The notes under the pieces: generated by a model
Databases searched by the model: none
Told to the model about the DNA's origin: nothing
Seen by the model: the letters and a program-made list of their open reading frames with translations, nothing else
In this document: piece by piece, positions 3,384 through 53,369 of the stretch
Layout: each line of letters opens with the position of its first letter
Numbering within the stretch: the stretch's first letter is position 1
IMG/VR virus record: IMGVR_UViG_2724679122_000005
Strand: one strand, 5' to 3'
Length of the DNA: 64,000 bases
Source: an uncultured virus (IMG/VR IMGVR_UViG_2724679122_000005)
Taxonomy: Duplodnaviria; Heunggongvirae; Uroviricota; Caudoviricetes
Position numbers and translations under genes: made by a program

Positions 3384-3784
3384 TTTTAAAACCTTCCGTA
3401 AGTGTTTTAGAGATGGCTGCATTCGCAGGAGCTAAATGATTTGTGTTGATTTCTTGCGTCTCTGGGACGACCTCTAGGTGTGTAATATTATTTTTCAGCT
3501 CATCAAGTTGGTATTGACCACCAGTTAATTGAGCAAGTTCACCGTTGTGATAATCCTGAGACAGATCTGCATGTGTTTTGGCAATATCAATCAAGCGAAA
3601 AGTTTTATCAAAAGCAAACTTACTTAAGTTATGGTCCTTAAGTTTTTCAACAAGACTTAGCTCAATTGCAGAGAGTAGGGCGTTTTATATCGCCCATATC
3701 ATTTTTCGCTTCGCTACGCGCCGCAATAAGGTCATCCACAGTCACGCTTTTGTTTTCTGGAAAAAGTTGTGAACTAGTACGCAT
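3367..3784 (-). CDS. Phage hypothetical protein (frameshift near 3685)
   Basis: ATG at 3784 (MRTSSQLFPEN) joins ORF 3367-3594 after a shift. Confidence 0.55.
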
Positions 3785-3786
3785 GA

Positions 3787-4518
3787 TTATTCCCCTTTAT
3801 TTTTAAGTGAAGCTAAGCGCTCTTTGTGAGCATCGATTAGAGCTTGATAGCAATCACTAGTACGGCCATCTAAAGCCATTAAATCTTCAGTGGACACAAC
3901 GCCTGAGTGAATCTCAACTTTGCGACCAGGACATGTTTTGGAAAAATACTGTTTTGCACTAATGGCATCTAACAAATCAATAAACCACTCCGATGACATA
4001 GAGATGCCTTGGTCAGACTCATCTAATGCTGTAGCCATGTAATAGTGACAAGCACTTTCAGTGTTTTGAGTTTCTTGCCAACGCAATGTTTCATCATAAT
4101 TTGGTACAAGTTTTACCAACTCTTCATGAGACATTTTCTGAACTTGAAGATTTATTAGTCGGTACTCATGAAAATTGAGCCAAACTCGCTCCCACATTGG
4201 CGCCTCTTCGTCTTCAAAATTTAAAGCAGAGGTGGCAAAAGCGCCTGCAGTAATGTAGTAATCCACTTCTGGATTTGAGCTTTTTAAGCTTTCTAGCTTT
4301 CTTTCTGCTTGATCAAGATGAAAGAACGGACGGTTAATAATTCCAAATGGGTAAATTTCTTTACCAGTAATTTGAATTGAAAGGTAATGGCATAAGCTTT
4401 CATCTGCCATCCATGCATCAAGCTGAGAAAGTAGTTTTTCAGCAGGCTTGTTTTTATTAGTAGAACGGAGATGCGAATTAGCGCCGACTTGTTGACTAAT
4501 ATCTGTGATTTGGTTCAT
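3787..4518 (-). CDS. Phage hypothetical protein, first gene of the pL operon
   Basis: 243-aa ORF. Confidence 0.75.
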   Translation of the reverse strand: MNQITDISQQVGANSHLRSTNKNKPAEKLLSQLDAWMADESLCHYLSIQITGKEIYPFGIINRPFFHLDQAERKLESLKSSNPEVDYYITAGAFATSALNFEDEEAPMWERVWLNFHEYRLINLQVQKMSHEELVKLVPNYDETLRWQETQNTESACHYYMATALDESDQGISMSSEWFIDLLDAISAKQYFSKTCPGRKVEIHSGVVSTEDLMALDGRTSDCYQALIDAHKERLASLKNKGE

Positions 4519-4630
4519 AATGTGACCACCAAAAAGTTACTTGTCCCGATCCTCGACCAAAATTTTCAGGACAAAAATTTATCTTAAAATACCAGAGCAT
4601 TGACTCTGGGTTTCGTGTTTATAAAATGAA

Positions 4631-4705
4631 TCAATCATTTTGTGTAATTTAAGATAAATCATTTTGTTTAAACTAGTCAAGATAATTTTAAATCATTTTG
4701 ATTAA
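4631..4705. promoter_or_regulatory. OL operators, type 1 (17-bp, TAAATCA-N3-TGATTTA-like)
   Basis: Sites at 4631, 4655, 4689. Confidence 0.7.
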
Positions 4706-4720
4706 TTATTTTTAGTTAAT

Positions 4721-4756
4721 AAAAAAGCCCGCTTTTTTGAATAGCGGGCTTTTTTT
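4721..4756. terminator. Bidirectional intrinsic terminator after cI
   Basis: AAAAAAGCCCGCT...AGCGGGCTTTTTTT. Confidence 0.8.
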
Positions 4757-4768
4757 ATTTTATTTTTC

Positions 4769-5461
4769 TTAATCTAAATATATATTCTGCATGGGTTGAA
4801 CTGGATACTCATACACATGCTTACTTGGCGGGATGATATCAGATACCGCAACAATTGCAGACACATCCTCCATATCAATAGTCATCCTTGCCTCGCCATT
4901 TACAGCTAAAAGATGAAGTACATTATTAACGATCCCAATAAATTCTTTAATGGTTCGTCTACCATCTTTCAGTTGAACCTCTACAAATTCTGTAGGTGTT
5001 GGCTCTGCATCTGGATCACAAACCACATACCAACCATTACGAATAGCAGGATACATTGAATCACCTGTACCTTTTACAGCGTAAGCATTTGGCCCTGCTG
5101 TAAGAGAAGGTACATAGCCGTCCCCACCATTACCTAAATATCCCATTTCAGTGTAATAGCCGTCCATTCCCATCTTTGAGTATGACTTCACAGGAACCCA
5201 ACCACCTCGTTTAGTATCTGTGGTGATTTTTTCATTTCTAACACTATCAATGGATGGTGAACCCTTTCCAGTAAGAATCCAGCCGAGATCAATATTAAAT
5301 TTATTGGATACTTTGAAAGCACCAGTTTTTGAAATACCTCGGCGCTCCCAATTGTAAACAATTTGAGGAGTCTCATCTAAGGCGTAAGCCAAATCGGCCC
5401 CAGTGATTTTTGTGACTTGGTAGACGCGTTCCATTGTTGGGTGAATTTGCTTCTTTTCCAT
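4769..5461 (-). CDS. cI: CI-like repressor (HTH + S24 peptidase), type 1
   Basis: N-terminal HTH, GDSMYP serine motif, TIKE lysine; divergent from cro; likely start MEKKQ at 5461. Confidence 0.9.
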   Translation of the reverse strand: MEKKQIHPTMERVYQVTKITGADLAYALDETPQIVYNWERRGISKTGAFKVSNKFNIDLGWILTGKGSPSIDSVRNEKITTDTKRGGWVPVKSYSKMGMDGYYTEMGYLGNGGDGYVPSLTAGPNAYAVKGTGDSMYPAIRNGWYVVCDPDAEPTPTEFVEVQLKDGRRTIKEFIGIVNNVLHLLAVNGEARMTIDMEDVSAIVAVSDIIPPSKHVYEYPVQPMQNIYLD

Positions 5462-6241: not shown

Positions 6242-6458
6242 NNNNNNNNNNNNNNNNNNNNNNNNNNNNNNNNNNNNNNNNNNNNNNNNNNNNNNNNNNN
6301 NNNNNNNNNNNNNNNNNNNNNNNNNNNNNNNNNNNNNNNNNTTTTAAGAAGGCAGAACCCTGATAGGATAAGGGTTCTGTGAAATTTGTCGTGTACAGAG
6401 TAATTTATATTAAAGCAATACAATGCAATATTACACAATCTTTAGCAATACAAAAATA

Positions 6459-9019: not shown

Positions 9020-9125
9020 NNNNNNNNNNNNNNNNNNNNNNNNNNNNNNNNNNNNNNNNNNNNNNNNNNNNNNNNNNNNNNNNNNNNNNNNNNNNNNNNN
9101 NNNNNNNNNNNNNNNNNNNTTATCC

Positions 9126-9449
9126 TTATCTTGAGCCAGTGAAGCCGCGCTTAGTTTTATAAGCTTTGCGGTCATAGGTAGGGATGTTTGTTTCACGCAG
9201 TTTTATAGCGAGCTGCTTTCTGCGCTGAAAATCGATTTCTTGGGTGAGTTCATTCCAAACTTTTGGATAAGAAGTTTGGAACCTGAACACATTTAAAGGC
9301 GTCTTAACTCCGTCTTTAACTTTGTAAAGAACTGAGCCATTAGCATTAGATGCGTACACTTGCCAGCCAATGCGAACAGAGTAGAGGCCCTTATCATCAC
9401 GGCCTAAAAATGACATGTAGCCATCAGGGTGCTTTTTGAAATTAGTCAT
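9126..9449 (-). CDS. Conserved phage early protein (copies at 16585-16721 and 23269-23592)
   Basis: Near-identical paralogs. Confidence 0.75.
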   Translation of the reverse strand: MTNFKKHPDGYMSFLGRDDKGLYSVRIGWQVYASNANGSVLYKVKDGVKTPLNVFRFQTSYPKVWNELTQEIDFQRRKQLAIKLRETNIPTYDRKAYKTKRGFTGSR

Positions 9450-9451
9450 CT

Positions 9452-9892
9452 TTAAGCCTCCACCAACTTGTTACGTTCGATGAAGCCTTTTAGAAGACCA
9501 TTGATGTTTCGGATGTCTTCAAATTCGGTGAAATCGTTATATGACTTACCATTAATGTCAGTGATTTCATTTACAGTGAGTTGGGTAATATCAACAGCGG
9601 TGAATTCAGAACCTGGAACGCCGTAGCTGTCTGGATAGGCTTCAAAATCAAAGCTAACGTTTAAACGGAAGCTATCTAATTTGATGACGGCAACGCCAGA
9701 ATCTTTACCTGTGATTTTCGCGGTTAACACACCGTAAGTACTTGGTTGAATTTTAGGTGTAAAAAGAGTAGGTACTTCTTTTGTTTGGAAAGCTGGCTGC
9801 AATTGGCAAGCAACTAAAGAACCACCAGAAATTGCAAGAGCAGCCATGCTGACAAATGCAAATGAGTTGAAAGGAGGAGCTTTTACGTTCAT
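9452..9892 (-). CDS. First pL-operon gene; lipoprotein-like (copies at 17004 and 23585)
   Basis: Hydrophobic N-terminus ending SLVAC; three copies in window. Confidence 0.75.
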   Translation of the reverse strand: MNVKAPPFNSFAFVSMAALAISGGSLVACQLQPAFQTKEVPTLFTPKIQPSTYGVLTAKITGKDSGVAVIKLDSFRLNVSFDFEAYPDSYGVPGSEFTAVDITQLTVNEITDINGKSYNDFTEFEDIRNINGLLKGFIERNKLVEA

Positions 9893-9970
9893 AATTGATC
9901 TCGCAGTTTTGCAAAAGCACATCGGACCTGGGGAGGGGCGGTGTGCTTTTTTGTTGTCTGTGAGATAAAT

Positions 9971-10029
9971 ATCGCATTTCCGATATTATTAGTCAATAGG
10001 TAATCCGATATTTTTATAGAAAATCCGAT
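9971..10029. promoter_or_regulatory. OL operators, type 2 (ATMG-N6-CGAT, 14 bp)
   Basis: Sites at 9971, 9996, 10016. Confidence 0.75.
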
Positions 10030-10099
10030 TTTTTATGCTTTAATAGACAAAAGAAAACCCACACGGGGTGGGTTGGGTGAGAAGGGTAGTGTTTGATTT

Positions 10100-10603
10100 T
10101 TATTTATTGCTCATTACTTTGCTTCTGGCCTCTCTCGCCTCTTTACGAGCCTTAAGGGTTTTCTCAAGCATAGATATTTCTTTTAAATCACTCCATGCCA
10201 AAAAGAAACTTAATATTGAGGTTAAGCCTACAGATAAGACTAATGCTAAAAGATGCTGATTTGATAGTAAATTCAATTCATTGAAAACATACATTCCAAA
10301 AACAATCACTATAAATAAAATGGCAACATATAGTGATGATTTGCTCCTTATATCCACAGTGGACGTGAGGCGATCCCGCTCTGATTGATTTAAACCATCA
10401 AGCTTCAATGCATCGAGCATACCTTTGTAGGCTAGATAAATTTGACTTAACGGTAATAACAAAACAAAGGAAAATTGAACCAAGTTGATATTTACATCAA
10501 GGGCAAGAAATTTAAAAGTAACTGAAAAAATGACAAATAGAGCTACTAACACTAATGCAATAAATTTAGCGTTGTTGTAAAACGGCAAGTAGCGTTTAGC
10601 CAT
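10100..10603 (-). CDS. 167-aa membrane protein (~4 TM), rexB position
   Basis: Four hydrophobic segments and a basic C-terminal helix. Confidence 0.8.
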   Translation of the reverse strand: MAKRYLPFYNNAKFIALVLVALFVIFSVTFKFLALDVNINLVQFSFVLLLPLSQIYLAYKGMLDALKLDGLNQSERDRLTSTVDIRSKSSLYVAILFIVIVFGMYVFNELNLLSNQHLLALVLSVGLTSILSFFLAWSDLKEISMLEKTLKARKEAREARSKVMSNK

Positions 10604-10605
10604 GA

Positions 10606-11609
10606 TTAATCACCAAAATTAATATTGGTAGTCATCCAATTGTACAATTGAACTTTAAGGCCGTCGTTATAAACTTTATTATTGATTGTTTCAACAGATA
10701 TTTTTCCACTCATCTTTAAGTTATCCGCTGTGACCTTAGTACCATCTTCAAGAGTTATAACATAATCATCATTATGTCTCATAGATGATGCAACAGTATC
10801 AATTACTTTTTGCCCGCTTTTGGATGTTTTTCGATTATAGGTGAGTGTTAATTTAAGCTTTAAATTAGCGTCATCAAGGCCATCTTCAAGTTTTAAATCA
10901 TCCAAATCGACACCAAATGCAGTTTTTAAAACATCAACCACATTTTCTTCAATTTTGTAATCAATCTTAGCTGGTACGTTCGACTCTATTTTGTGAATCG
11001 GTTGCAATTCTGTTGATCCAATTCCAGATGAGATTGAGATGGTCTTGGCTGGCGTTGATTCCAATTTTTCTTTAATTGCCGGGTTCGGAGCATCTTTTAA
11101 GATTAAGGCACTATTCGCTGGTAAGGCTTTAGCTGCTTCACCCAAAAGCCAACCTAAATAAGACTCAAGAGTTCTTGCTGTTAATGATCTGGATTGAATA
11201 ATTGCAACATGATTATCAATCACTCCAAAATATAAAACACTATCAATAAATTCTTTGCGCACTACTTCAACAGATTCATCCTCATCATCAGGTAAATCTT
11301 CCGTTAAGTAAGTTTTGATTGGGAATTCGGTAGCACTATCATTGTCTATTTTTAAAACAGCTTGAGCTTTACCAGACTCCACTATGATTAGCTCTCCAAA
11401 GAACATACTTTGATGTGAACTTGCGTGATTTATAAGGATAAAATCATCTTTAGTAGCCGATACAAATTGCTGCCTATTAATAGCTTTATGATAAAAAGAG
11501 TCTTTATCTAATAGTTGGGCTTTAAGTAAGTTTCCAAGGTTCGCGCCTTTTTAGAAAGTCTACTTTTTTTGTAGTGTACGGTTTTGTCTTTTACAACTGT
11601 CTTACTCAT
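10606..11609 (-). CDS. ~333-aa soluble protein, rexA position (two homopolymer insertions near 5' end)
   Basis: Aligns over full length with intact paralog 18740-19747. Confidence 0.8.
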
Positions 11610-11659
11610 TATTTTCCCCACCCGATCTGTTGTAAAGACTGTGTCGGGTTCACAGTTTA

Positions 11660-11875
11660 TTAATCTTTTGTGTTATTAATTTTCTGTCCTAGCTTTCCTT
11701 CTTTTACCAACTGCACGACCTGCTCATTAGTAAGCACAGGAATAAAGACTTTGTCGCCAATATCTTTAGAAAGAATCTTTACCTCTTCAGCAGTCAGCAC
11801 CAAAGCTTCACCATGTTTAGCTGCATCATTGATACGAGCAATAATCTGGTTGATTGGTAGTTTTGAATTGTCCAT
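11660..11875 (-). CDS. 71-aa protein directly downstream of cI
   Basis: 70/71 aa identical to 19799-20014. Confidence 0.8.
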   Translation of the reverse strand: MDNSKLPINQIIARINDAAKHGEALVLTAEEVKILSKDIGDKVFIPVLTNEQVVQLVKEGKLGQKINNTKD

Positions 11876-11895
11876 ATATCACCTAAAACCTTAAT

Positions 11896-12570
11896 TTAAC
11901 TTTTTCTAACACGCTTTGGACGTGATCCGCCTAATGGTCTAAATGCATCAATAACTAAGCCTACGAGCTCCATACCATCTTCAAATTCAATAATATTGGG
12001 ATGGAAGTTGGGGTTTAATGCTTGCAAGTATTTGCGCTGGTCGCTTTCAATTACAAGCTTCTTAAAGGTTGCGTCTGAATTATTTCTAACAACGATGAGG
12101 TCATCAGCGATTAGATCGCAAACTTGATAGTTTGGATTAACTAAAATGTAGTCTCCCTCTTCATATCTAGGGGAATTACTTACTCCAACTACTCTCAAAT
12201 AAAAACAACCATCTGGATCATCTGCACTAAGTGGTGGCAACCATTCATTTATTTTATTAGGATCGATAGCTTCTACTGATGTCATTGTCCCTGCCTGCAC
12301 CCAAGAAAGAACGGGAATTAGTTTTTTAGTTATAGGCTCAACATTATTGTCAAACTTACTGACAATTCCTTTTTTTAGCTCTTCTGCGGTAACACCAAGT
12401 GCGGTAGCCAGCTCAAGTATAGAGCCTGTCGATTTGGCATTCCCTGTTTCGAGATCAGAAATTACAGATTGTTTGACACCTGACTTCATAGCCAGTTCTT
12501 TTTGAGTCATTTTCTTAGCTTTGCGAATTGCTTTTAAGTTTTCGCCCAAAGTAGCCATAAATTTGTCCAT
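11896..12570 (-). CDS. cI: CI-like repressor (XRE HTH + S24), type 2
   Basis: MTQKELA..SVISDLETG HTH; VQAG cleavage motif; ATFKKL. Confidence 0.92.
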   Translation of the reverse strand: MDKFMATLGENLKAIRKAKKMTQKELAMKSGVKQSVISDLETGNAKSTGSILELATALGVTAEELKKGIVSKFDNNVEPITKKLIPVLSWVQAGTMTSVEAIDPNKINEWLPPLSADDPDGCFYLRVVGVSNSPRYEEGDYILVNPNYQVCDLIADDLIVVRNNSDATFKKLVIESDQRKYLQALNPNFHPNIIEFEDGMELVGLVIDAFRPLGGSRPKRVRKS

Positions 12571-12580
12571 CGTTACTTCT

Positions 12581-12641
12581 ATCGGAATTCTGATACATAT
12601 TTCAATCGGTTTGGCTATTGAATAAATATCGGAAAACCTAT
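12581..12641. promoter_or_regulatory. OR operators, type 2
   Basis: ATCG-N6-YKAT at 12581, 12605, 12628. Confidence 0.75.
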
Positions 12642-12671
12642 ATATTTAATAAAAATTATCGGAGACCGCCC

Positions 12672-12872
12672 ATGAATCAATGGCAGAAGATGATCTCTGA
12701 GTTAAGGGAAAAGGGTCTTACTCAGACATTTATAGCCGCAGAAATCGGGTGCTCACAGAATTACGTTAGTGATTTAGAGCGCGGGTTATGTGGGAAACGC
12801 CTTTCATATGATCTAGGAAGAAAACTAGAAAATTTATGGAAGGAATATTGTTCAAAACAATTAACCGCTTAG
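12672..12872 (+). CDS. cro: Cro-like protein
   Basis: GLTQTFIAAEIGCSQNYVSDLERG HTH; GGAGA RBS. Confidence 0.85.
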   Translation: MNQWQKMISELREKGLTQTFIAAEIGCSQNYVSDLERGLCGKRLSYDLGRKLENLWKEYCSKQLTA

Positions 12873-12882
12873 GAACTAAACC

Positions 12883-13245
12883 ATGAGCAAAGTATCAACC
12901 GAATTGAGTGCAAGTGCGAGAAATAGCATTACAAGGGTTTTACGCATTCTTGCAAACAGTAATAACTCCCAGATTGCTGAAAAGTTGGGGCTAGATCCAA
13001 CTACATTTTCAAGATTTAAAAATGACAAGAAAAACAATGGCTTGTCAGATATTGAGAATGTTTGCGCAATGTTGGATTTGCTTGAATTAAAAATCGTACC
13101 GAAGAAATACAAGTTAATTCACAAGGAAAAGTTGGCAGCGCTTTTGAATCTATCAAAGGCTTATATGGGACGCCTAGGTTCAGTCGATGATCTTTTTCAA
13201 GATGACATTGAAGACTTTGGAATTAATGAAGAACTCGGATATTAA
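12883..13245 (+). CDS. CII-like regulator
   Basis: Position after cro; IAEKLGLDPTTFSRFK HTH. Confidence 0.7.
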   Translation: MSKVSTELSASARNSITRVLRILANSNNSQIAEKLGLDPTTFSRFKNDKKNNGLSDIENVCAMLDLLELKIVPKKYKLIHKEKLAALLNLSKAYMGRLGSVDDLFQDDIEDFGINEELGY

Positions 13246-13301
13246 AAAACCGCTTCCTGCGCGAACAGGTTAGCGGTCACGTTCAATCGGAGAAGGACCA
13301 A

Positions 13302-13460
13302 ATGAACTATTCAATATTAGCAGACATTGAACTAAATCGGAAGATTAGTTTGTTTCAAAAAGCGGTTGAGGCTTATGTGCTTAATCGAACTCTCGAAAAC
13401 TCTATGGCATTGGCTAAAGCAAAAGCTGATTTAGCTGCATTTGTATTGAGAGGTGTTTGA
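13302..13460 (+). CDS. 52-aa phage protein
   Basis: AAGGA RBS; TGA overlaps next ATG. Confidence 0.6.
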   Translation: MNYSILADIELNRKISLFQKAVEAYVLNRTLENSMALAKAKADLAAFVLRGV

Positions 13461-14349
13461 TGGGTGCATCAATTCCAATTATTAAGTTGATTGAAGCTAT
13501 GAACGAACAGCCAATAGCATTCAACAAGCACTATGTATTTTTAGGATGTGGGATCAATGGGGCATTAATGCTCTCTCAATTGGTCTACTGGACTTCTCGC
13601 ACTAAAGACAGTGAAGGTTGGATCTTTAAAACACATCATGAGTGGACTCAAGAAACTGGTCTTACTCGTCGTGAGCAAGATACGGCCAGAGCAACACTTA
13701 AATCACTTAAATTCATCTCTGAGAAAAAGATGGGTGTGCCTTGTCGTGTTTACTACCGTGTAGAGCGTGAAACCTATATCAAGCTTTGATCGAATACTCT
13801 GAAAGCATTGATATTAATAGTATGCACAATTCCGCCATACTGAATGCACAGAACAGCCATACTGAATGCACAAATCCGCCAGACTGTATGCACAATTCCG
13901 CCATACTGAATGCACAAATCCGCCCATCTAATACAGAGAATACATACAGAGAATACACAGAGAATACTACAGATATTATTTGTGCTGATTCAGCACCAAA
14001 AACACAAAAATTCAAAGCGAAAGATTTCTTGTTGAAAAACGGAGTATCTGAGCAAACAGCAACAGAATATCTTGATCTTCGCAACAAGAAGAAAAAACCA
14101 GTAACTCAACGTGCTTTACAACTTGTTTTCAAACAAGCTCAGGAAGCAAAGCTAAGCAATGAGCGTGTATTCCAAATTATCGTTGTTCGTGGTTGGGAAT
14201 CTTTCAAAGCTGCTTGGAACTGGCAAGAGACAAATGCAGAGCTTGAGCAATTAGAAAATCCAGTTGCTGAGCAGCAACAAACTATCCATGAACAACCAGC
14301 AACACAATTCAAAGGTGTTGCTAAGAAATTTAAGGGGATGGACCAATGA
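13460..14349 (+). CDS. Replication initiator (one-base frameshift near 13770)
   Basis: LSQLVYW..WIFKT..EWTQETGL motif; internal iterons; upstream of helicase. Confidence 0.8.
13821..13973 (+). repeat. Replication origin: five 22-bp iterons, then ACAGAGAATAC repeats
   Basis: ATGCACA at 13822, 13844, 13866, 13888, 13910. Confidence 0.8.
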
Positions 14350-15719
14350 TTGAATTATTTTCTATCCCTGTTGAGCAAAGCATCTTGTCTACGTTCATGA
14401 CAATCGATCAGGCAGCAGATGAGTTTATCTCTCAGATCGATGCACAAGATTTCTATGCATCACAACACCAGATCATCTTTGCCCACATCAAGAGCCAATT
14501 GAATAAGGGTGAAGCGTTTGATGAGGTGACTGTATTCGAGTTGATTAAAGCTAATCCGCTTGAAGCAAACCAAATCGATGAGCAGTTTCTTGTGAACCTC
14601 ATGAACCGCGCAAGCAATGTGAGCTTGTTAGTAACACACATCAAAAAGCTAAAAGATTTCTCTACTCGCAGAAAGCTTCAAGAGACTAGCAAGTTGATTA
14701 GTTCGATCGCTAACGACATGGCAACTCACACTGCTGAATCTGCTGTGAACAAAGCACAATCGTTAGTTCAAAACTTAGATTTTGGTGCTGGTGAGGAAAA
14801 GCTTAAACATGCTCATGAGTTTTCAAAAGAAGCTGTAAAAGAGTTCCTTGATCGCCACATGGCAATTCATAACCAAATGCCTTATGAGGGCGGTATCAAG
14901 ACTGGCTTTACTGCTCTGGACAACAAACTAGGTGAAATCAGCAAAGGCGATCTAGTCATCATTGGTGCGCGTCCTTCAATGGGTAAAACAACGTTTGCTC
15001 AAAACATTGCAGCAGACATGATGATTAACCAGTCTTTACCAGTTCTGTTTATCTCAATCGAAATGAAGGGCAGACAGATTGCACAGCGTTTAATTAGTGG
15101 CATTGGTGGGGTAGAGCTACGCAAAGTATTAACAGGACATATTGATCCAAATAGCGACGATACACAGAAGGTGAATAACGCTGCTCTGGTACTTGAGAAA
15201 GCACCTTTGATGATCGACGACAACAACCGCGCAACTGTGGCAACTATCCGCAGATCAGCTAAGAAGGTTCAAGCCAAATACGGAAAGATTGGCGCAATCT
15301 TTGTTGATTACATCCAGAAAGTAACACCACTCACTAAAAACAACTTTGGTCGTTCTGACAAAGATATCGGTGAAATATCTAATGAGCTTAAGCGTATGGC
15401 AGGTGACTTTGATTGTCCTGTGATCGCACTAGCACAGCTTAACCGTAACTTAGAGAACCGCCCAAACAAACGCCCTGTAAATGCAGATCTAAAAGAATCA
15501 GGCGACTTAGAGCAAGACGCAGACATCATCATGTTTATTTACCGCGATGAAGTCTACAACAAGGATTCTAAAGAAGCAGGTACAGCAGAAATCATCATAG
15601 GTAAGGCTCGTAACGGCTCAATTGGCACAGTTCGATTAGCTACAGACTTGTCACGCGCAACTTTCGCTGACTTAAGCCCTGAGTATTACCAGTCTATGGA
15701 AGAGAGAGGTGCAGCGTGA
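14346..15719 (+). CDS. dnaB: Phage-encoded replicative DnaB-like helicase
   Basis: GARPSMGKT, VDYIQ, LAQLNR, DLKESGDLEQDAD, KARNG motifs. Confidence 0.95.
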   Translation: MIELFSIPVEQSILSTFMTIDQAADEFISQIDAQDFYASQHQIIFAHIKSQLNKGEAFDEVTVFELIKANPLEANQIDEQFLVNLMNRASNVSLLVTHIKKLKDFSTRRKLQETSKLISSIANDMATHTAESAVNKAQSLVQNLDFGAGEEKLKHAHEFSKEAVKEFLDRHMAIHNQMPYEGGIKTGFTALDNKLGEISKGDLVIIGARPSMGKTTFAQNIAADMMINQSLPVLFISIEMKGRQIAQRLISGIGGVELRKVLTGHIDPNSDDTQKVNNAALVLEKAPLMIDDNNRATVATIRRSAKKVQAKYGKIGAIFVDYIQKVTPLTKNNFGRSDKDIGEISNELKRMAGDFDCPVIALAQLNRNLENRPNKRPVNADLKESGDLEQDADIIMFIYRDEVYNKDSKEAGTAEIIIGKARNGSIGTVRLATDLSRATFADLSPEYYQSMEERGAA

Positions 15720-15967
15720 AAGCAATAAAACGAGTTAAAGCATTCCAAAACATTTTTGACATTTTGTTATTCGCTACACATGCAACACAACCTTTCACGA
15801 TGAAGGATTTGCATGACCATGTGTTAGATGCACCTAACAACACTATCCAATGCTATGTGCAGGAATTAATTAAAAGCGGCTACTTGGAAAAGGACTCATA
15901 CGCAACTTACAAAGCAACTCAGTTTGCAAAGGACTTGCTGAATGTTAAAGGGGAGCTGAAAGCATGA
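15716..15967 (+). CDS. Small winged-HTH-like protein
   Basis: 83-aa ORF coupled to dnaB. Confidence 0.65.
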   Translation: MKAIKRVKAFQNIFDILLFATHATQPFTMKDLHDHVLDAPNNTIQCYVQELIKSGYLEKDSYATYKATQFAKDLLNVKGELKA

Positions 15968-16140
15968 TCGAATTTGCAGATTACACCTCAATGATGAAGC
16001 TGCGTAGAGCGTACAACCTCGGTACTCGTAATGAAGAAACAAGAGCAGCAGCGAACCTCTATGAGAAATTAAGAAAGCTGAAAATGCTAGACCAGCTTAA
16101 GCAGGAAGCCATGACTAGACGTTACAAGGAGGCGGTATGA
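15964..16140 (+). CDS. 58-aa phage protein
   Basis: ATGA overlaps at both ends. Confidence 0.6.
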   Translation: MIEFADYTSMMKLRRAYNLGTRNEETRAAANLYEKLRKLKMLDQLKQEAMTRRYKEAV

Positions 16141-16469
16141 AACCAGAACAGTTTATTCGTGAGTACAGGGTGGAGAAGGCGAGGGAGGTTGTTGCTAATC
16201 AGCCAAAAATGAATGCAACTCAATACAGGGCTAAAGACAAGAAATATTCGTCTCTGTTTAAACCAAGCCCAGAGATTGTTTATGTAGCTGACCTCAAGCG
16301 TCTGGTGGAGTCTATTGATTTAGTCGAATCATGGGGTGGCATTGAGGACTTAAAACTATATGACTTGTCTCATTGCAAAGATAAACCTGAATCTGCTGGA
16401 TACAAGCTGCTTAAAGCAATTGCTGATTACGAATCAATATACGGAGGCGGTGAATCTCATGCCAACTAG
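16137..16469 (+). CDS. Phage nin-region protein
   Basis: C-terminus ESIYGGGESHAN shared with 28321-28743. Confidence 0.7.
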   Translation: MKPEQFIREYRVEKAREVVANQPKMNATQYRAKDKKYSSLFKPSPEIVYVADLKRLVESIDLVESWGGIEDLKLYDLSHCKDKPESAGYKLLKAIADYESIYGGGESHAN

Positions 16470-16713
16470 ATATAACTATATACTNNNNNNNNNNNNNNNN
16501 NNNNNNNNNNNNNNNNNNNNNNNNNNNNNNNNNNNNNNNNNNNNNNNNNNNNNNNNNNNNNNNNNNNNNNNNNNNNNNNNNNNNTAAAAACCCTGTAAAG
16601 AACTGAGCCATTAGCATTAGATGCGTACACTTGCCAGCCGATGCGAACTGAATACAGCCCTTTATCATCACGACCTAAAAAAAGACTTATAGCCGTCAGG
16701 GTGCTTTTTGAAA

Positions 16714-17004
16714 TTAGACATGTTCAGCCTCCTTACATTCGCATGCACCAACAAAGGCATACGTAAGCGGGCTAGGAGCATCTACAGGTGAGACGTCCTT
16801 AATATTTAAAGGAATAATTTCTTTGCGATATTTAACTAAAACCACATCACCTTCACGGCAATCGACAATTCCTTCTTTTGAAGAAAAACGAGCAGATTTA
16901 GAAGATTGGGTTACTCTGCAAAATGAAACCTCATCACCAGCTTTGATTTTTGAACGGTCAACAGGAATCATCTTCTTGCAAGTAGGGCAGTTGTAATCTT
17001 TCAT
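16714..17004 (-). CDS. Cys-rich phage protein
   Basis: CPTC and CEC motifs; absent from fragments C and E. Confidence 0.7.
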   Translation of the reverse strand: MKDYNCPTCKKMIPVDRSKIKAGDEVSFCRVTQSSKSARFSSKEGIVDCREGDVVLVKYRKEIIPLNIKDVSPVDAPSPLTYAFVGACECKEAEHV

Positions 17005-17447
17005 TAGGCTGCCTCCACCAACTTGTTACGTTCGATGAAGCCTTTTAGAAGGCTATTGATGTTGCGGATGTCTTCAAATTCGGTGAAATCGTTATATGAC
17101 TTACCATTAATGTCAGTGATTTCATTTACTGTGAGTTGGGTAATATCAACAGTGGTGAATTCAGAACCCGGAACGCCGTAGCTGTCTGGATGAGCTTCAA
17201 AATCAAAGCTAACGTTTAAACGGAAGCTATCTAATTTAATTACAGCAACTCCAGAATGCTTACCTGTGATTTTTGCGGTTAACACGCTGTAAGTACTTGG
17301 TTGAGTTTTAGGTGTAAAAAGAGTAGGTGCGTCTTTTGTTTGGAAAGCTGGTTGCAATTGGCAAGCAACTAAAGAACCACCAGAGATTGCAAGAGCAGCC
17401 ATGCTGACAAATGCAAATGAGTTGAAAGGGGTAGCTTTTACGTTCAT
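17004..17447 (-). CDS. First pL-operon gene (paralog of 9452-9892)
   Basis: Near-identical protein. Confidence 0.75.
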   Translation of the reverse strand: MNVKATPFNSFAFVSMAALAISGGSLVACQLQPAFQTKDAPTLFTPKTQPSTYSVLTAKITGKHSGVAVIKLDSFRLNVSFDFEAHPDSYGVPGSEFTTVDITQLTVNEITDINGKSYNDFTEFEDIRNINSLLKGFIERNKLVEAA

Positions 17448-17525
17448 AATTGATCTCGCAGTTTGCAAAAGCACATCGGAAGGTAAGAGAGTCGATGTGC
17501 TTTTTTGTTGTCTACGAGATTTATA

Positions 17526-17596
17526 TTAACTATGGTTAATTTTTTAGTCAAGAGAAAAGTTAACAATGGTTAATCTTTTTTATTAACTATAATTCA
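17526..17596. promoter_or_regulatory. OL operators, type 3 (TTAAC-N4-GTTAA)
   Basis: Sites at 17526, 17560, 17583. Confidence 0.75.
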
Positions 17597-17641
17597 TGCT
17601 TTAATAGACAAAAGAAAACCCAACTATCAAAGGTGATAGAA

Positions 17642-17884
17642 ATGAGTCTAGGCGAAGAAATGTTTGAATGGCGCAAGCAGATGGTTGAGAAACTACTGCT
17701 TCAGGAAAGTAATATTGATCAACTAGAAGAAAAAGTTGATCGTGCTGAAAAGATTCTTTTTGGTGATTGCACAGCCGCTTTCAAAATAGAGTGCACGCTT
17801 CGGAACGCGTATGCGCTGAAAGCTATTCTTGATGACTTTGCCACCAAGAATAACTGCAAGGTAAGTATAGTAGAGTGTGAGTAA
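17642..17884 (+). CDS. Small moron protein
   Basis: 80-aa ORF with AGGTG RBS. Confidence 0.55.
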   Translation: MSLGEEMFEWRKQMVEKLLLQESNIDQLEEKVDRAEKILFGDCTAAFKIECTLRNAYALKAILDDFATKNNCKVSIVECE

Positions 17885-17890
17885 TCAGGG

Positions 17891-18094
17891 TTAGCTCATT
17901 CCTGAAATGGGTTTTGATGTGGCTTTAGGCTTTGGCTTAAGTTCTTTTAAAGCTTCTTCTACCGCTTTCAGTGATTCCTGGTAGGTTTTAACCCAAAGAT
18001 CAGCACTTTTTATATTGATGGTTGAAGGATCAGTATCAGCAATGGTTGCCTTAGTAAGCTCTAACGCTAGAGCTTCTATGATTTCAGTTTTCAT
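17891..18094 (-). CDS. Small moron protein
   Basis: 67-aa ORF with GGAGA RBS. Confidence 0.65.
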   Translation of the reverse strand: MKTEIIEALALELTKATIADTDPSTINIKSADLWVKTYQESLKAVEEALKELKPKPKATSKPISGMS

Positions 18095-18233
18095 ATTTTC
18101 TCCGATATTAATGGTTATTTAAGATCAATGTTGGCACAAAGTCTTAATCCCATAATATCAGGGAAAATTTGAATATATTAAAAAAAGAAAACCCACCGTG
18201 GTGGTGGGTAGATTAGATGAATTGGATCGCTTT

Positions 18234-18738
18234 TTACTTATTGCTCAATACTTTTGCTTTTGCCTCTCTTGATTCTTTGCGATCTTTTAATGTTTTTTCA
18301 AGCAAAGAGATTTCTCTTAAGTCAGACCAAGCTAAGAAGAAGCTAAAAAATTGAGGTGAGTCCAACAGAAAGTATTAGAGCTAAAAGATGCTTAGCTGAA
18401 AGTAAGCCTAATAAATTAAGTATATACATACTAAAAACAAGAATAATAAAAAGCATAGCCACATATAAAGATGACTTACTTCTTATGTCCACAGTTGAAG
18501 TCAACCTATCTCGTTCTGACTGATTTAAACCATCAAGCTTTAATGCATCGAGCATACCTTTATAAGCCAAATAAATTTGACTTAAAGGGAGAAGCAGTAC
18601 AAATGAAAATTGAACCAGATTTATTGTAATATTTAACTCTAAATATTTAAAAATTATTGAAAATATAGCAAACAGACCGACTAACACTAGTGCGATAAAT
18701 CTAGCATTATTGTAGAAGGGTAAGTAGCGTTTAGCCAT
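18234..18738 (-). CDS. 167-aa membrane protein, rexB position, copy 2 (one homopolymer insertion)
   Basis: Span of 505 nt = 504+1; homolog of 10100-10603. Confidence 0.8.
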
Positions 18739-18739
18739 A

Positions 18740-19747
18740 TTAGTCACCAAAATTTATATTGGTAGTCATCCAATTATACAATTGAACTTTTAGGCCGTCG
18801 TTATAAACTTTATTATTGATTGTTTCAACTGAAATCTTGCCGCTCATTTTTAGATTATCAGCCGTAACCTTGGTCCCATCCTCAAGAGTAATAACATAAT
18901 CATCATTATGTCGCATGGATGAAGCTACAGTATCAATAACTTTTTGCCCACTTTTTGAGGTTTTGCGGTTGTATGTAAGTGTTAATTTTAACTTTAGGTT
19001 TGCGTCATCAAGCCCATCCTCTAGTTTTAAATTTTCTAAATCAACTCCAAAAGCTGACTTAAGCACATCAACCACATTATCTTCAATTTTATAGTCAATT
19101 TTCGCAGGTATGCTTGATTCGACAGTATGAACAGGTTGAAGTTCTGTTGACCCAATGCCAGATGAGATTGAAATAGTTTTAGCTGGAGTTGATTCAAGCT
19201 TTTGCTTAACAGTGGGATTTGGAGCATCTTTTAATATTAATGCACTATTCTCTGGCAATGCTTTGGCTGCTTCACCCAAAAGCCAGCCCAAATATGACTC
19301 CAAGGTTCTAGCGGTAAGTGATCTTGATTGAATGATTGCGACATGGTTATCAATAACACCAAAGTAAAGAACACTATCAATAAACTCTTTTCTTACAACC
19401 TCTGTAGCGTCAACGCCATCTTCATCATCTGGCAGATCATCTGTTAAATAGGTTTTAATGGGAAATTCAGTAGCATCATCACTGTCTATCTTTAATACAG
19501 CCTGAGCTTTGCCTGACTCAACAATAATCAACTCGCCAAAGAACATGCTTTGGTGTGAACTAGCATGATTAATTAGAATAAAATCATCTTTTGTTGCGGA
19601 GACAAATTGTTGACGATTTATGGCTTTATAGTAAAAAGAATCCTTATCCAGCAATTGTGCTTTTAGTAATTGACCTAGATTGGCGCCTTTTAGAAAATCT
19701 ACTTTTTTGTAGTGTACTGTTTTGTCTTTTACTACTGTTTTACTCAT
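18740..19747 (-). CDS. 335-aa soluble protein, rexA position, copy 2
   Basis: Intact ORF; GGAGGAGG RBS before MSKTVV. Confidence 0.85.
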   Translation of the reverse strand: MSKTVVKDKTVHYKKVDFLKGANLGQLLKAQLLDKDSFYYKAINRQQFVSATKDDFILINHASSHQSMFFGELIIVESGKAQAVLKIDSDDATEFPIKTYLTDDLPDDEDGVDATEVVRKEFIDSVLYFGVIDNHVAIIQSRSLTARTLESYLGWLLGEAAKALPENSALILKDAPNPTVKQKLESTPAKTISISSGIGSTELQPVHTVESSIPAKIDYKIEDNVVDVLKSAFGVDLENLKLEDGLDDANLKLKLTLTYNRKTSKSGQKVIDTVASSMRHNDDYVITLEDGTKVTADNLKMSGKISVETINNKVYNDGLKVQLYNWMTTNINFGD

Positions 19748-19798
19748 TATTTCCTCCTCCCGAATCGCTCTAAAGTACTGTGTCGGGTTCACAACTTA

Positions 19799-20014
19799 TT
19801 AATCTTTGGTGTTGTTAATTTTCTGCCCAAGCTTTCCTTCTTTTACCAACTGCACTACTTGTTCATTTGTAAGGACTGGAATAAAGACTTTATCACCAAT
19901 GTCCTTTGAGAGGATCTTCACTTCTTCGGCTGTTAGCACCAAAGCTTCACCATGTTTCGCAGCATCATTGATGCGAGCAATAATCTGGTTGATTGGTCGT
20001 TTTGAATTGTCCAT
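19799..20014 (-). CDS. 71-aa protein downstream of cI, copy 2
   Basis: Paralog of 11660-11875. Confidence 0.8.
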   Translation of the reverse strand: MDNSKRPINQIIARINDAAKHGEALVLTAEEVKILSKDIGDKVFIPVLTNEQVVQLVKEGKLGQKINNTKD

Positions 20015-20028
20015 AAGTCTTCCTGTGA

Positions 20029-20782
20029 TTAATGCGAATAAGGATGTTCTTGTCTGTGCTGACTTGGCGGCACGATATCTGTAATAGCGGTAATACTTTC
20101 AACTTCGTCCATTTCAAAGAAAAATCGCTCACCACCATTCACAGAAAGCAAACTTAAAACCCCACCATTGATGCCGACAAATTCTTTAATTGTGCATCTT
20201 CCATCCTTCAAGCACACCTGAACAAACTCATTCGGCACAAGATCTGCATCAGGGTCGCATACAACATACCAGCCATTACGAATTGCTGGAAACATTGAGT
20301 CGCCAGTGCCTTTAATGCCATAGGCTCGTGGACCTGCTGTATGAGTTGGAACATAGCCATCCCCAGCATTTCCATCGTATCCCATATCTGTGAAATACCC
20401 ATCCATTCCCATTTTTGAATAGGCTTTAACTGGAACATATCTTTTTTGTATAGGGAAAGGCTTAGCTGGCGCTTGAACAAACTTAACGGCATCTTCACTA
20501 TCTGGAATATTGTACTTCTGCTTAAATGCTTCAATATCAATAACATTTAATTGAGCTAAATTGTTACTCGATTCTTGTTCATCCGATCCACCATAAAGCA
20601 ACCAATCGTCACTCACACCTAAAAATTTCGCAATGACTTTCAAATTTTCTGCTGTAGGTACGCTAGTTCCATCTAGCCATTTCTTTGCTGCAACAGGAGA
20701 TTTTTTAGTTGCTCTTGCTAAATCAGCGGCTCTTAATTTTTTTTTCTTCAAGTTTTTGCCTAATTCGAGTGTGTAAAGACAT
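20029..20782 (-). CDS. cI: CI-like repressor (HTH + S24), type 3 (5' homopolymer frameshift)
   Basis: ADLARATKKS..KWLDG HTH; GDSMFP; TIKE; likely start MSLHTRI. Confidence 0.9.
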
Positions 20783-20801
20783 AACAAATATTCCAAAAAC
20801 A

Positions 20802-20874
20802 TTAACTAATGTTAATACGATCTATTGAAACTATGGTTAACAAGTGGTAAATTTGGTTTATTAACTATAGTTAA
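20802..20874. promoter_or_regulatory. OR operators, type 3
   Basis: Sites at 20802, 20827, 20861. Confidence 0.75.
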
Positions 20875-20886
20875 CTTGGTGTAACC

Positions 20887-21075
20887 ATGAAAATTAGTGA
20901 CCTCATGACATACCACGGCTGCAAAAATCGGAAAGAGTTGTCTGAAAAAACTGGATATTCAACCGTGACCCTCTGGAAGTGGGAAAACAACGGTATACCA
21001 GCCAGAACTCAAGCAGTCCTGCAAGTCAAAACCAAAGGCAAACTTAAAGCCGATTTACAAGCATTAACCGCTTAG
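20887..21075 (+). CDS. cro: Cro-like protein
   Basis: ELSEKTGYSTVTLWKWENNGIP. Confidence 0.85.
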   Translation: MKISDLMTYHGCKNRKELSEKTGYSTVTLWKWENNGIPARTQAVLQVKTKGKLKADLQALTA

Positions 21076-21085
21076 GAACTAAACC

Positions 21086-21406
21086 ATGAGCAAAGTATTA
21101 AATGAATTGCCTGCAAGCGCTAGCAATAACGAATCGCTCATATTGCAAGCACTTAACGCTAGCAATCAAAGACAAGTAGCAGAGATGATAAATGTCGATG
21201 CAAGCATCCTTTCACGGATGAAAACAGAAAAGAAATCAAATGGATGGACTGAGATTGAGTTTATTAGCTTTTTGTTGACAGCCATTGGTTTGAAGGTTGT
21301 GCAAGAAAGTGATGTGTATTGCTCACCTGAAATTGCAGAAGCAACGCGAGTTTATTTAGCACATGCATTCACTTCACCTGAATACATGCGGATTTTATTC
21401 AAATAA
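21086..21406 (+). CDS. CII-like regulator
   Basis: QRQVAEMINVDASILSRMK; position after cro. Confidence 0.7.
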   Translation: MSKVLNELPASASNNESLILQALNASNQRQVAEMINVDASILSRMKTEKKSNGWTEIEFISFLLTAIGLKVVQESDVYCSPEIAEATRVYLAHAFTSPEYMRILFK

Positions 21407-21461
21407 AAAACCACTACCTGCTGTAACAGGAGTGGTTTCGCATTCACAAATTTAGGAACCC

Positions 21462-21740
21462 ATGAATATGCAAAACAATTTATCAAATCAAACAACCGAA
21501 CGCAACCAGCCAGAATTTTTAGTGGGTGACGTTGTAGTGCTTACTAAAGAGTGCCGTACTTTCAAATCAAATGATTTGTTTGAAGTTAAAAACAAAACTT
21601 TGACTAGGTTGTGGACTATCAAATCGGAGAATCATTTGATTCTGGTTTCATCAAAAGAAATCCGTACAGCAACAGTAGCAGAGCTCAACGCCAAACGCCG
21701 GCTAACAAGCGCAGAGCAAGCATTAGCGGAGGTGTCATGA
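21462..21740 (+). CDS. Phage protein (homolog of 25735-26007)
   Basis: Shared C-terminus. Confidence 0.7.
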   Translation: MNMQNNLSNQTTERNQPEFLVGDVVVLTKECRTFKSNDLFEVKNKTLTRLWTIKSENHLILVSSKEIRTATVAELNAKRRLTSAEQALAEVS

Positions 21741-22036
21741 ATAGTTAATTTAAGTATAAACCTGAGTACAAACAGATTCAGGAAATTCAGTCCTTCTTTG
21801 ATCCAGCGTTAGTGATTCTCAATGAGCTACATGATCGTAACCGTAAAAATCTAAGAGCCAAAGGTTATGACGAAAATAATGCTGCAATAACGCGTGAAGA
21901 ATTTTCACAAACTATGGCACAGCGTTTTCGCACTAATCAGTGGTTAGCAGGGCAGATCGTTAATAGTTTGGCTAATGCTGACTTGGTTCAAAAATTTGGT
22001 GGGTATGTAAAGCCTAAGGTCGGTGTACATGAGTAA
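21737..22036 (+). pseudogene. Homolog of 26004-26300 with TAA at codon 4
   Basis: ATG AAT AGT TAA is in frame with the rest of the ORF. Confidence 0.55.
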
Positions 22037-22438
22037 TTTTGTGCCTAATTCCTTTCAAGTGCCTAATGCATTTGTTGACGAGGTTTTAAATAAAATCTCT
22101 GATGCTGCATGCAAAATTTATTTAGTTATTTGCCGTAAAACTCGTGGCTGGAATAAGGAGATGGATTCCATCTCTTTAACTCAATTTGAAGAGATTACAG
22201 GGAAGAGTAGACCGACAGTTGTTAAATGCCTTAATGAATTAATTAAAGTTGGTTTAGTCGTGGAACAACCAAGCACAATTCATGGAAATACATTCAAATT
22301 AGGTAACGATACTAGCGTTGGTTTAGTGCTTAAATTCCCTAGTAAAAATTTTTTTACTACCTGAAATTTATGGCCAAACTAGTAAAAATTCTTTACCACT
22401 CTATTAAATTTAAACTTAACTATAGAAATTTTACGAAA
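22029..22438 (+). CDS. O-like replication initiator (5' part)
   Basis: FQVPNAFVD, ICRKTRGWNK..DSISLTQF; repeated CTAGTAAAAATT at ~22340 and 22379. Confidence 0.75.
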
Positions 22439-22538
22439 NNNNNNNNNNNNNNNNNNNNNNNNNNNNNNNNNNNNNNNNNNNNNNNNNNNNNNNNNNNNNN
22501 NNNNNNNNNNNNNNNNNNNNNNNNNNNNNNNNNNNNNN

Positions 22539-28743: not shown

Positions 28744-28921
28744 ATATAACACAGGCGNNNNNNNNNNNNNNNNNNNNNNNNNNNNNNNNNNNNNNNNNNN
28801 NNNNNNNNNNNNNNNNNNNNNNNNNNNNNNNNNNNNNNNNNNNNNNNNNNNNNNNNNTCAGCACAGAGCAAGTGAAAGCAGGCGTGGCGATTAAACAAAT
28901 TGAGCAATTGGTAGGTGAAAA

Positions 28922-39653: not shown

Positions 39654-39859
39654 AACTTAATTTTTAACCTTAGCACCTTCGGGTGCTTTTTTTGTGAGAA
39701 GAAAANNNNNNNNNNNNNNNNNNNNNNNNNNNNNNNNNNNNNNNNNNNNNNNNNNNNNNNNNNNNNNNNNNNNNNNNNNNNNNNNNNNNNNNNNNNNNNN
39801 NNNNNCACCATTTTTTTTTTAACCTTAGCACCTTCGGGTGCTTTTTTTGTGAGAAGAAA

Positions 39860-43716: not shown

Positions 43717-43767
43717 ATTAAAACCCACTTCGGTGGGTTTTTTAATGGGCGCAATTTAGGAGTTTGA

Positions 43768-44177
43768 ATGGTAAATACAACTACGTTCCTTTGTGGCTTA
43801 TCTCACCATTTCAGCATGTGCATTACACATTAGTTCGAAATCAACTGCATATGGATTTGCTATTTGAGGACATGAATAAGGTCGATCAATTCTTGTCTAT
43901 TGAAGGGGCTGCAGCTCAGGTTGATTTCTATTCCGAAGGTGCATATGCAGTTGTTCAGCTTGGTGATACTTCAGAAAGAAATCAGATTGAAGTGTATGGA
44001 TTGCTTTTACATGAAGCTGTTCATGTCTGGCAAAAGATTAAAAAGCTCATGGGTGAACGAGAACCGAGCTCTGAGTTTGAAGCTTATTCAATTCAGGCGA
44101 TCGCTCAGGATCTCTTTAAGATGTATGAGGAAAGCGAGGTTAAAAGTCATGGGGTGGAAGGGGAAAAAGCCGACTAG
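43768..44177 (+). CDS. Phage protein with HExxH motif (5' frameshift)
   Basis: LLHEAVH; homolog at 52198. Confidence 0.7.
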
Positions 44178-48367: not shown

Positions 48368-48635
48368 TCAACTTATTCAGTAACAAAGCCTATGGAAACC
48401 CATGGGCTTTTTTATTTCTAAAAATTAGAGGTTGTTATGGCTTTAAAAGTCGGAATTATTAAAAGCTCAGACGTATCAAAANNNNNNNNNNNNNNNNNNN
48501 NNNNNNNNNNNNNNNNNNNNNNNNNNNNNNNNNNNNNNNNNNNNNNNNNNNNNNNNNNNNNNNNNNNNNNNNNNNNNNNNNTTGAAGTTAATTTTTAACC
48601 ATAGCACCTTCGGGTGCTTTTTTTGTGAGAAGAAA

Positions 48636-52189: not shown

Positions 52190-52197
52190 GGGCTAAA

Positions 52198-52942: not shown

Positions 52943-52943
52943 A

Positions 52944-53269: not shown

Positions 53270-53369
53270 NNNNNNNNNNNNNNNNNNNNNNNNNNNNNNN
53301 NNNNNNNNNNNNNNNNNNNNNNNNNNNNNNNNNNNNNNNNNNNNNNNNNNNNNNNNNNNNNNNNNNNNN

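Follow-up and report, generated by a model that had tools for sequence, protein, structure and literature searches.

Rex is the first abortive-infection system discovered, and we know of no account so far of the mechanism that triggers it. In lambda, in Sbash, in CarolAnn and in the Pseudomonas putida pair RexABpp, a soluble RexA-type protein stimulates a four-transmembrane (4-TM) protein, with membrane damage or depolarisation, growth arrest and an aborted infection as the outcome, as the available parts of two papers describe it (PMC12894663, PMC6426596). Only five Rex-like systems have been described so far, according to the available part of a 2026 paper (PMC12894663). The actinobacteriophage Rex-like pairs named in the accessible text are Sbash gp30/gp31, CarolAnn gp44/gp43 and Butters gp30/gp31 (PMC6426596, PMC7542560); RexABpp is the pair PP_5643/PP_5644 of the P. 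putida prophage P1, RexA-like by HHpred and structure only, with a 4-TM partner, located behind a CI-like repressor and shown to defend, again in the part of the report that is available (PMC12894663). Here we analyse a stretch of 64,000 nucleotides (nt) from an uncultured virus of the Caudoviricetes (IMG/VR record IMGVR_UViG_2724679122_000005; henceforth the window), in which an earlier reading, called here the original prediction, had placed a candidate three-gene anti-phage system. We conclude that the pair of genes at 10087-11633, accessory cargo of an Acinetobacter prophage's immunity operon, is probably a sequence-divergent RexAB-type module for abortive infection (phage exclusion) made up of two genes.

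The first point of resemblance is the layout of the operon, which lies on the contig 9120-16484 with all its genes on the minus strand. From the repressor side onwards, with lengths in amino acids (aa), its features are the following:

12625..12663, no strand assigned: OR-type operator-like repeats (AATATCGGA-like) upstream of cI, with matches at 12625-12633 and 12655-12663
11896..12570, minus strand: cI-type repressor of 224 aa with HTH_3 (PF01381, 1.9e-13) and Peptidase_S24 (PF00717, 2.7e-15) domains; phrog_4, transcriptional repressor
11660..11875, minus strand: 71-aa gene between cI and the pair; phrog_2719 (4.2e-50), a family of unknown function
11636..11658, no strand assigned: conserved inverted repeat with an 8-pair stem, between the 71-aa gene and the pair
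10606..11609, minus strand: gene of the RexA-like soluble protein, phrog_3482; 333 aa in relatives, frame broken as written in the window
10100..10603, minus strand: gene of the RexB-like membrane protein, 167 aa, phrog_4510; four long predicted helices
10046..10074, minus strand: intrinsic-terminator-like hairpin (10074-10056) with a T-tail, at the 3' end of the operon
9968..10032, no strand assigned: OL-type operator-like cluster of four AATATCGGA-like sites, from a motif count

The order of cI, soluble gene, 4-TM gene, terminator and OL matches the order OR-cI-rexA-rexB-terminator-OL of the annotated lambda record, and the gene order, the terminator and the operator-like repeats together support the lambda rexAB position proposed in the original prediction. 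Its description of co-oriented genes behind cI, ahead of a terminator and OL-like operators, was confirmed by the common minus strand, the hairpin and the repeats, and so was the spacing of 1-2 nt that it gave for the soluble and membrane genes: the stop codon of the former (10606-10608) and the ATG of the latter (10603-10601) are 2 nt apart. Matches to the AATATCGGA-like motif number 24 in the window against 12.75 expected, a count that none of 100 shuffles reached, and the repeat clusters on both sides of the operon fit putative OL- and OR-type operators. A promoter scan stayed at chance level (8 sites found against 10.0 expected), and we claim no separate promoter.

The second point is the fold of the soluble protein. 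An AlphaFold2 model was made on P0001, an intact paralogue encoded elsewhere in the window, from a 35-sequence alignment. It reached a predicted local distance difference test score (pLDDT) of 71.9 and a predicted template-modelling score (pTM) of 0.71, with 204 of 335 residues at pLDDT >=70; two alpha/beta domains are well predicted, and the linkers at residues 105-118 and 197-252 are poorly predicted. The structural comparison with RexA and RdgC that the original prediction had proposed came out in favour of RexA: Foldseek against the PDB returned two matches at E<=1e-3, both of them chains of lambda RexA 8TWQ (3.6e-5 and 4.8e-4), with RdgC third. The runners-up in the PDB were Chl4/CENP-N, Iml3 and RdgC, where we take CENP-N to be the counterpart of Chl4. 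They agree with the structural relatives of RexA, namely RdgC, Iml3 and Chl4, listed in the accessible part of the published work (PMC11077077). Among the viral models of BFVD, the search with P0001 gave five significant matches, all to uncharacterised viral proteins, with phage RdgC proteins next in rank. The soluble protein is therefore best described as having a predicted two-domain fold of the RexA/RdgC type, made up of a split globular and a dimerisation domain. Because this predicted fold is that of lambda RexA, we read the locus as a divergent RexAB-type pair and not as the undescribed system of the original prediction, a revision that the validated P. putida precedent also favours, as far as the available text goes (PMC12894663). 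In one phage record the orthologue carries the label 'DefenseFinder protein', which would fit an annotation based on structure, if this is where the label comes from.

The third point is the partner, a predicted inner-membrane protein. Its model consists of four long helices (residues 12-32, 41-66, 73-109 and 115-166; pLDDT 83), and the parts rich in K, R and E are the N-terminus, the 67-80 loop and the C-terminal helix, of which the last two are also conserved. Under the positive-inside rule, charged (positive) segments face the cytoplasm, so these three parts should lie on the cytoplasmic side. Aligned with one another, the membrane partners are homologous at 13-25% identity; no variation is seen at E75 and R153 and very little at P51 and R78, and the most conserved part of the family is the motif 'GLSxxExRRL', which contains E75 and R78 and lies in the loop between TM2 and TM3. 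Sbash gp31 loses its defence activity through the substitutions R70A and D73A, which lie in the same central loop, according to the available text (PMC6426596). Structure searches with the membrane model found generic helical bundles only; a 165-aa Sbash protein, whose identity as gp31 is not confirmed, ranked third in BFVD with a non-significant match (E 0.48, TM score 0.49). Judging from the two models, a soluble protein together with a 4-TM protein is the architecture expected for an exclusion system, which lends support to the sensor and membrane-effector arrangement put forward in the original prediction.

If the pair works as Rex does, a plausible course of events can be outlined. In the lysogen, the two genes would be transcribed together with cI. 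The RexA-like protein, probably a DNA-binding dimer, would sense a product of the infecting phage or a DNA-protein intermediate of replication or recombination, and might then engage the conserved cytoplasmic loop and/or the C-terminal helix of the membrane protein. This protein would oligomerise into a channel or pore, the membrane would become depolarised or leaky, and growth would stop with the infection aborted.

How the pair is conserved and where it is found bear on the same question. We took 26 loci from species genomes by the family's most conserved peptide pattern. In 25/25 assessable loci the soluble gene is overlapped or directly adjoined by the gene of a co-oriented partner, 161-225 aa long and with 3-4 hydrophobic segments; the 26th locus runs off its contig. 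Carriage is patchy: the family is present in 9/401 species genomes of Pseudomonas, with the membrane partner in 9/9 including very divergent ones (E 1e-33 to 2e-7), and in 5/247 species genomes of Acinetobacter. The neighbour scan used 150 of 151 open reading frames (ORFs; L038:73-702 was left out), the 151 having been picked out of 228 ORFs for a length of >=80 aa and a location within about 2 kilobases of the pair. Seven of the 26 loci lie directly behind an S24/CI-type repressor and are co-oriented with it. In six the pair stands, on the opposite strand, in the interval from the Q antiterminator to the holin/lysozyme genes; three have gpU/gpD tail genes of the P2 type as neighbours, and in one the pair has a SIR2 protein on one side and a type I methylase (HsdM) on the other. 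The other nine have transposases, island genes of the primase type, a pyocin or a tail fibre beside them, or give no information on context. The pair is thus a conserved mobile module occupying at least three prophage accessory slots. Such patchy, slot-hopping spread as prophage cargo is typical of defence genes and does not fit a housekeeping role; the original prediction had held that homologues mostly in housekeeping contexts would tell against it, and what we found was prophage cargo. Two settings may be recorded in their own right. In A. faecalis (L015 4021-4455, 6834-7778) the flanking genes, in a prophage immunity region, encode a PAS-domain protein and a GGDEF diguanylate cyclase, and in Psychrobacter (L016 2508-3302, 6911-9274) it is the pair between the SIR2 protein and the type I HsdM methylase, a setting that resembles a defence island.

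Comparison with the nearest of the genomes compared (G001) shows what the mobile unit consists of. G001 has an identical cI and the 71-aa gene, with a different pair in the slot; homology between the window and G001 ends at 11634 and picks up again at 10086, which leaves an exchanged stretch, 10087-11633, of exactly two genes. The left boundary of this swappable unit is close to the terminator at 10046-10074. At its right boundary stands the inverted repeat 11636-11658, coinciding with the break of homology to G001, and a 2437-nt contig of the RNA run X15 also diverges into unlike sequence at 11634; the inverted-repeat region 11634-11663 may be a module junction for cassette exchange. The G001 slot (L011 = G001:C1:119000-127000, 3635-5292) holds a helix-turn-helix plus Peptidase_M78 protein (ImmA/IrrE-like, 373 aa) and a DUF4411 protein (177 aa). 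This M78 and DUF4411 pair is followed by a pentapeptide-repeat protein and is itself another candidate accessory or defence cassette on the same backbone of cI and 71-aa gene.

The replacement of the pair in G001 supports the accessory nature of the cassette claimed in the original prediction, and it also corrects its extent. Since the 71-aa gene is kept beside cI in G001 where the pair has been replaced, the unit comprises two genes and not the three originally proposed; the 71-aa gene is a companion of cI and lies outside the mobile unit. It stands immediately behind at least two different cI alleles (11660-11875 and 19799-20014) and is the most widely shared piece among the Acinetobacter phage records listed. 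These are 30 listed of 47 matching records: five of the 30 cover the pair, 22 match the 71-aa gene only, with or without cI, and three match in fragments. A protein atlas returned unnamed clusters only for the 71-aa gene, whose product may be a conserved small protein of the immunity operon. As a separate observation, the Ab105-2phi record (KT588075; L002 2994-3975) has a 3' part of the membrane gene that is 74% identical, with about 620 base pairs of extra DNA (ORF12/ORF13) downstream; the record annotates a 130-aa 'putative membrane protein', and the pair may be altered in this phage.

Two other immunity regions of the window lack the cassette, a comparison that requires a word on how the window is made up. 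It is a scaffold and not one molecule: nine runs of exactly 100 N (6242-6341, 9020-9119, 16485-16584, 22439-22538, 28758-28857, 39706-39805, 48482-48581, 53270-53369 and 62910-63009) split it into ten contigs, and gene adjacency across these runs carries no meaning. There are four separate immunity regions, with cI at 4769, 11896, 20029 and 24235, and the other cI genes, standing as they do on other contigs of the scaffold, belong to other prophages. The slot was said to be empty behind the cI genes at 4769 and 24235, and we found it so. Behind the former there are a terminator and repeats; directly behind the latter are phrog_1984 and phrog_1824, the same two genes that lie beyond the terminator of the 10100-11609 operon.

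The remaining region, with cI at 20029, contains a second copy of the whole arrangement (71-aa, RexA-like and RexB-like genes), 80% identical, at 18183-20015 on the contig 16585-22438:

20029-20802, minus strand: cI allele of the second copy, 257 aa, its N-terminus distorted by an over-call at 20737
19799-20014, minus strand: second 71-aa gene, behind this different cI allele
18743..19747, minus strand: second RexA-like gene, intact, 335 aa, encoding P0001, the protein used for modelling
18234..18738, minus strand: second RexB-like gene, broken in the window by one extra homopolymer base at about 18349

This gives the strain two paralogous pairs of the Rex type, one in each of two prophages.

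Several results weigh against reading the pair as Rex-type. At E<=1, sub-threshold noise apart, neither protein matched a family of Pfam, NCBIfam or PADLOC, and their PHROG matches are function-unknown families only, phrog_3482 and phrog_4510; on this point the original prediction, which recognised no named family, was correct at the sequence level. The soluble protein had no match at E<=1 to the RexA models of Pfam (PF15969) and PADLOC (PDLC02339), and 0/81 family members matched any RexA model at E<=0.01, when as positive controls lambda RexA scored 1e-97 and 9e-110 (PADLOC) and lambda RexB 8.6e-61 (PADLOC). A profile search against PDB sequences brought up no RexA and only chance DARPin matches, and aligning the soluble family with a 25-sequence RexA alignment in hhalign gave E 0.18 and 0.082 with a probability <1%. 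For the membrane protein, the RexB models PF15968 and PDLC02340 were likewise without a match, and hhalign of its family against lambda RexB gave a probability of about 1%. The pair thus lies outside the RexA and RexB sequence families as these are currently defined, and its resemblance to RexA rests on a predicted structure in which about half of RexA is aligned (153/279 residues, at 11% identity), with about a third of the P0001 model (residues 105-118 and 197-252) of low confidence. Proteins that share a fold need not share a function, and for RexA a second role, in the lysis-lysogeny switch and independent of RexB, is known as well. As for transcription, the pair is covered by contigs from three RNA-seq studies, and one contig of 2222 nt spans 10666-12600, from the soluble gene through cI; such contigs tell neither strand nor level and could derive partly from DNA, so that they do not prove expression in lysogens. 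In run X20 there is no cover over cI (11856-12600), and the strain concerned probably has another cI allele.

Among the weak matches of the pair, those to LapA (E 7e-4, below its cut-off) and to the PADLOC '4TM' effector model (E 0.0042) were dismissed as chance, and those to a BapA-prefix domain and to DcuC as weak chance matches.

The alternative that survives best, unlikely as we judge it, is that the pair is some other sensor and membrane system (Kiwa-like, a toxin-antitoxin or stabilisation pair, or an entry-blocking superinfection exclusion protein with its regulator), so that its resemblance to RexA would reflect a shared ancient fold. The missing sequence link to either RexA or RexB speaks for it; the RexA/RdgC fold does occur in proteins of other roles, such as RdgC and the kinetochore proteins Chl4 and Iml3, 4-TM partners are common in many defence systems, and the weak PADLOC match to the '4TM' model points in the same direction. 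However, both structure searches put RexA first with no rival beside it, and gene order, adjacency and the cI-proximal slot all match Rex. Kiwa, a two-gene pair of a membrane protein (KwaA) and a soluble protein (KwaB), is similar in its composition. Its membrane gene KwaA lies upstream of KwaB, whose domain is DUF4868, whereas in our pair the soluble gene comes first, and neither DUF4868 nor the PADLOC Kiwa models were matched by the pair at E<=1. Kiwa chains do not appear in the structure-search lists shown, a mere absence that is not evidence against Kiwa. The comparison with Kiwa drawn in the original prediction found no support in these results.

It is also rather improbable that the main task of the pair, or of its RexA-like member by itself, lies in the choice of the prophage between lysis and lysogeny and not in defence, with a non-specific DNA-binding clamp biasing the switch after induction, as lambda RexA does without the help of RexB. 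Such a role would agree with the predicted RexA/RdgC-like fold, with the location of the pair inside an immunity operon between operator clusters, and with the abstracts of a 2021 bioRxiv preprint and of a second paper (PMC11077077), in both of which lambda RexA biases the switch towards lytic growth. Yet this cI also works where another cassette fills the slot, and many relatives of the pair are found far from repressors, in 6/26 loci between Q and the lysis genes, in 3/26 beside P2-type tail genes and in one between SIR2 and HsdM. A purely DNA-level role also leaves the retention of the membrane partner in every assessable locus unexplained. For these reasons we keep to a RexAB-type exclusion module as the preferred reading.

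As written in the window, the soluble gene is broken: its longest ORF starting with ATG has 266 aa, the stop-to-stop frame has 314 codons, and a 33-codon start piece lies in another frame. Compared with the phage records PQ859669 and KT588075, both of which annotate an intact 333-aa coding sequence for the soluble protein, the window has two surplus A's (at about 11548 and 11564-11570); the A6 and A4 runs that hold them are 18 nt apart. We compared four public runs over 10050-12600: one DNA run, otherwise identical to the window and possibly its source, and three contig sets of RNA-seq data, each from a different study. Both extra letters (one at 11548, one at 11564) are absent in 4/4 runs. 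On the neighbouring contig 16585-22438, a 99.7%-identical genome reveals six further 1-base homopolymer insertions in the window (at 16683, 17581, 18186, 18349, 20737 and 22349), and single-base A/T homopolymer over-calls, which appear systematic in the window, have the signature of assembly error. Overlapping short ORFs elsewhere in the window (e.g., 43764-44517 and 52099-53674) suggest more over-calls of this kind. As the extra A's are missing from all four runs, we regard the frame break as an assembly artefact and the soluble gene as intact in the organism, with 333 aa; the '~335 aa' of the original prediction did not describe the gene as written and was right in substance once the artefact is removed. 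That the cassette is dead in this genome, with the soluble gene a frameshifted pseudogene split by two 1-base insertions, is highly improbable in view of the four runs free of both letters and of the assembly-error signature of the six insertions next door.

How far the family extends is a wider question. A word-indexed search gave 61 relatives of the soluble protein, 0 of them with a precomputed Pfam domain, from Acinetobacter, Marinobacter, Thalassospira, Morganella, Halomonas, E. coli, Providencia, Xenorhabdus and Pantoea, and with the threshold at E<=1e-3 an exhaustive profile search gave 831 representative clusters, a number that falls to 591 at <=1e-10 and to 283 at <=1e-30. We tentatively suggest, as something we would not quite call probable, that the pair is the tip of a large branch of the Rex superfamily unseen by sequence methods (these 831 clusters), which hops as a fixed unit among at least three cargo slots across Acinetobacter, Pseudomonas, Marinobacter and Enterobacterales, and of which RexABpp is possibly a member. 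A protein-atlas feature search for P0001 produced unnamed clusters and one weak lead, a Bacillota cluster at rank 19 (score 0.93) with DUF6731 in 15% of its members; this cluster may lead to more distant relatives of the RexA-like family. If the large-branch suggestion is true, Rex-type abortive infection would be among the commoner prophage-borne defences of Gammaproteobacteria, missed by the hidden Markov model libraries tested, and a co-evolving pair with the invariant loop residues E75 and R78 would give a workable way into a question now 70 years old, how RexA switches RexB on.

The family is large, widespread and invisible to the Pfam, NCBIfam and PADLOC v2 models tested, and in both partners conserved loop and helix residues emerge from the alignments as possible sites of contact between the two proteins. 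Among the prophages of Acinetobacter baumannii-type strains that harbour the pair are relatives of Ab105-2phi, which has itself been engineered for use in phage therapy research, and a resident Rex-type exclusion system could have a bearing on the therapeutic phages able to plate on these strains. Rex-like genes in the rex slot will hardly surprise a specialist; the size and spread of the family, and its presence in clinically relevant Acinetobacter prophages, are nonetheless worth recording.

Set beside the systems already described, the Acinetobacter pair stands at different distances from each. RdgC is a recombination-associated, DNA-binding ring dimer, a stand-alone housekeeping protein with no membrane partner, and its structural match to the soluble protein is much weaker than that of RexA. 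In the literature, with subscription-only papers and supplements outside the scope of the search, we found no description of the family or of a Rex-type system in Acinetobacter. RexABpp differs in having been validated by experiment, whereas the Acinetobacter pair is known from sequence and predicted structure; when the 7 published mutated residues of RexBpp were sought in 33 membrane partners (24 + 9), the best had 3/7, which is chance level, and none qualified as an orthologue. The actinobacteriophage pairs belong to other hosts and other sequence families. Sbash gp30 has a DUF4747 motif according to the available text (PMC6426596), which the Pfam scan of our pair did not match, and in Butters the roles of the two proteins are reversed, as the accessible part of another paper has it (PMC12894663). 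What these phages share with our locus is a soluble RexA-like protein with a 4-TM partner, in their case expressed from the prophage, and, for Sbash, the conserved central cytoplasmic loop of the membrane protein, which the available text reports as functionally essential there (PMC6426596). Lambda RexAB has a characterised function and no detectable sequence similarity to either protein; its proteins are shorter (279 aa against 333, and 144 aa against 167), and it has no counterpart of the 71-aa gene that stands here between cI and the pair. What it shares with our pair, besides the gene order, is the predicted fold of the soluble protein, for which RexA 8TWQ is the best match, and a partner that is a small four-helix membrane protein encoded directly after the soluble gene.

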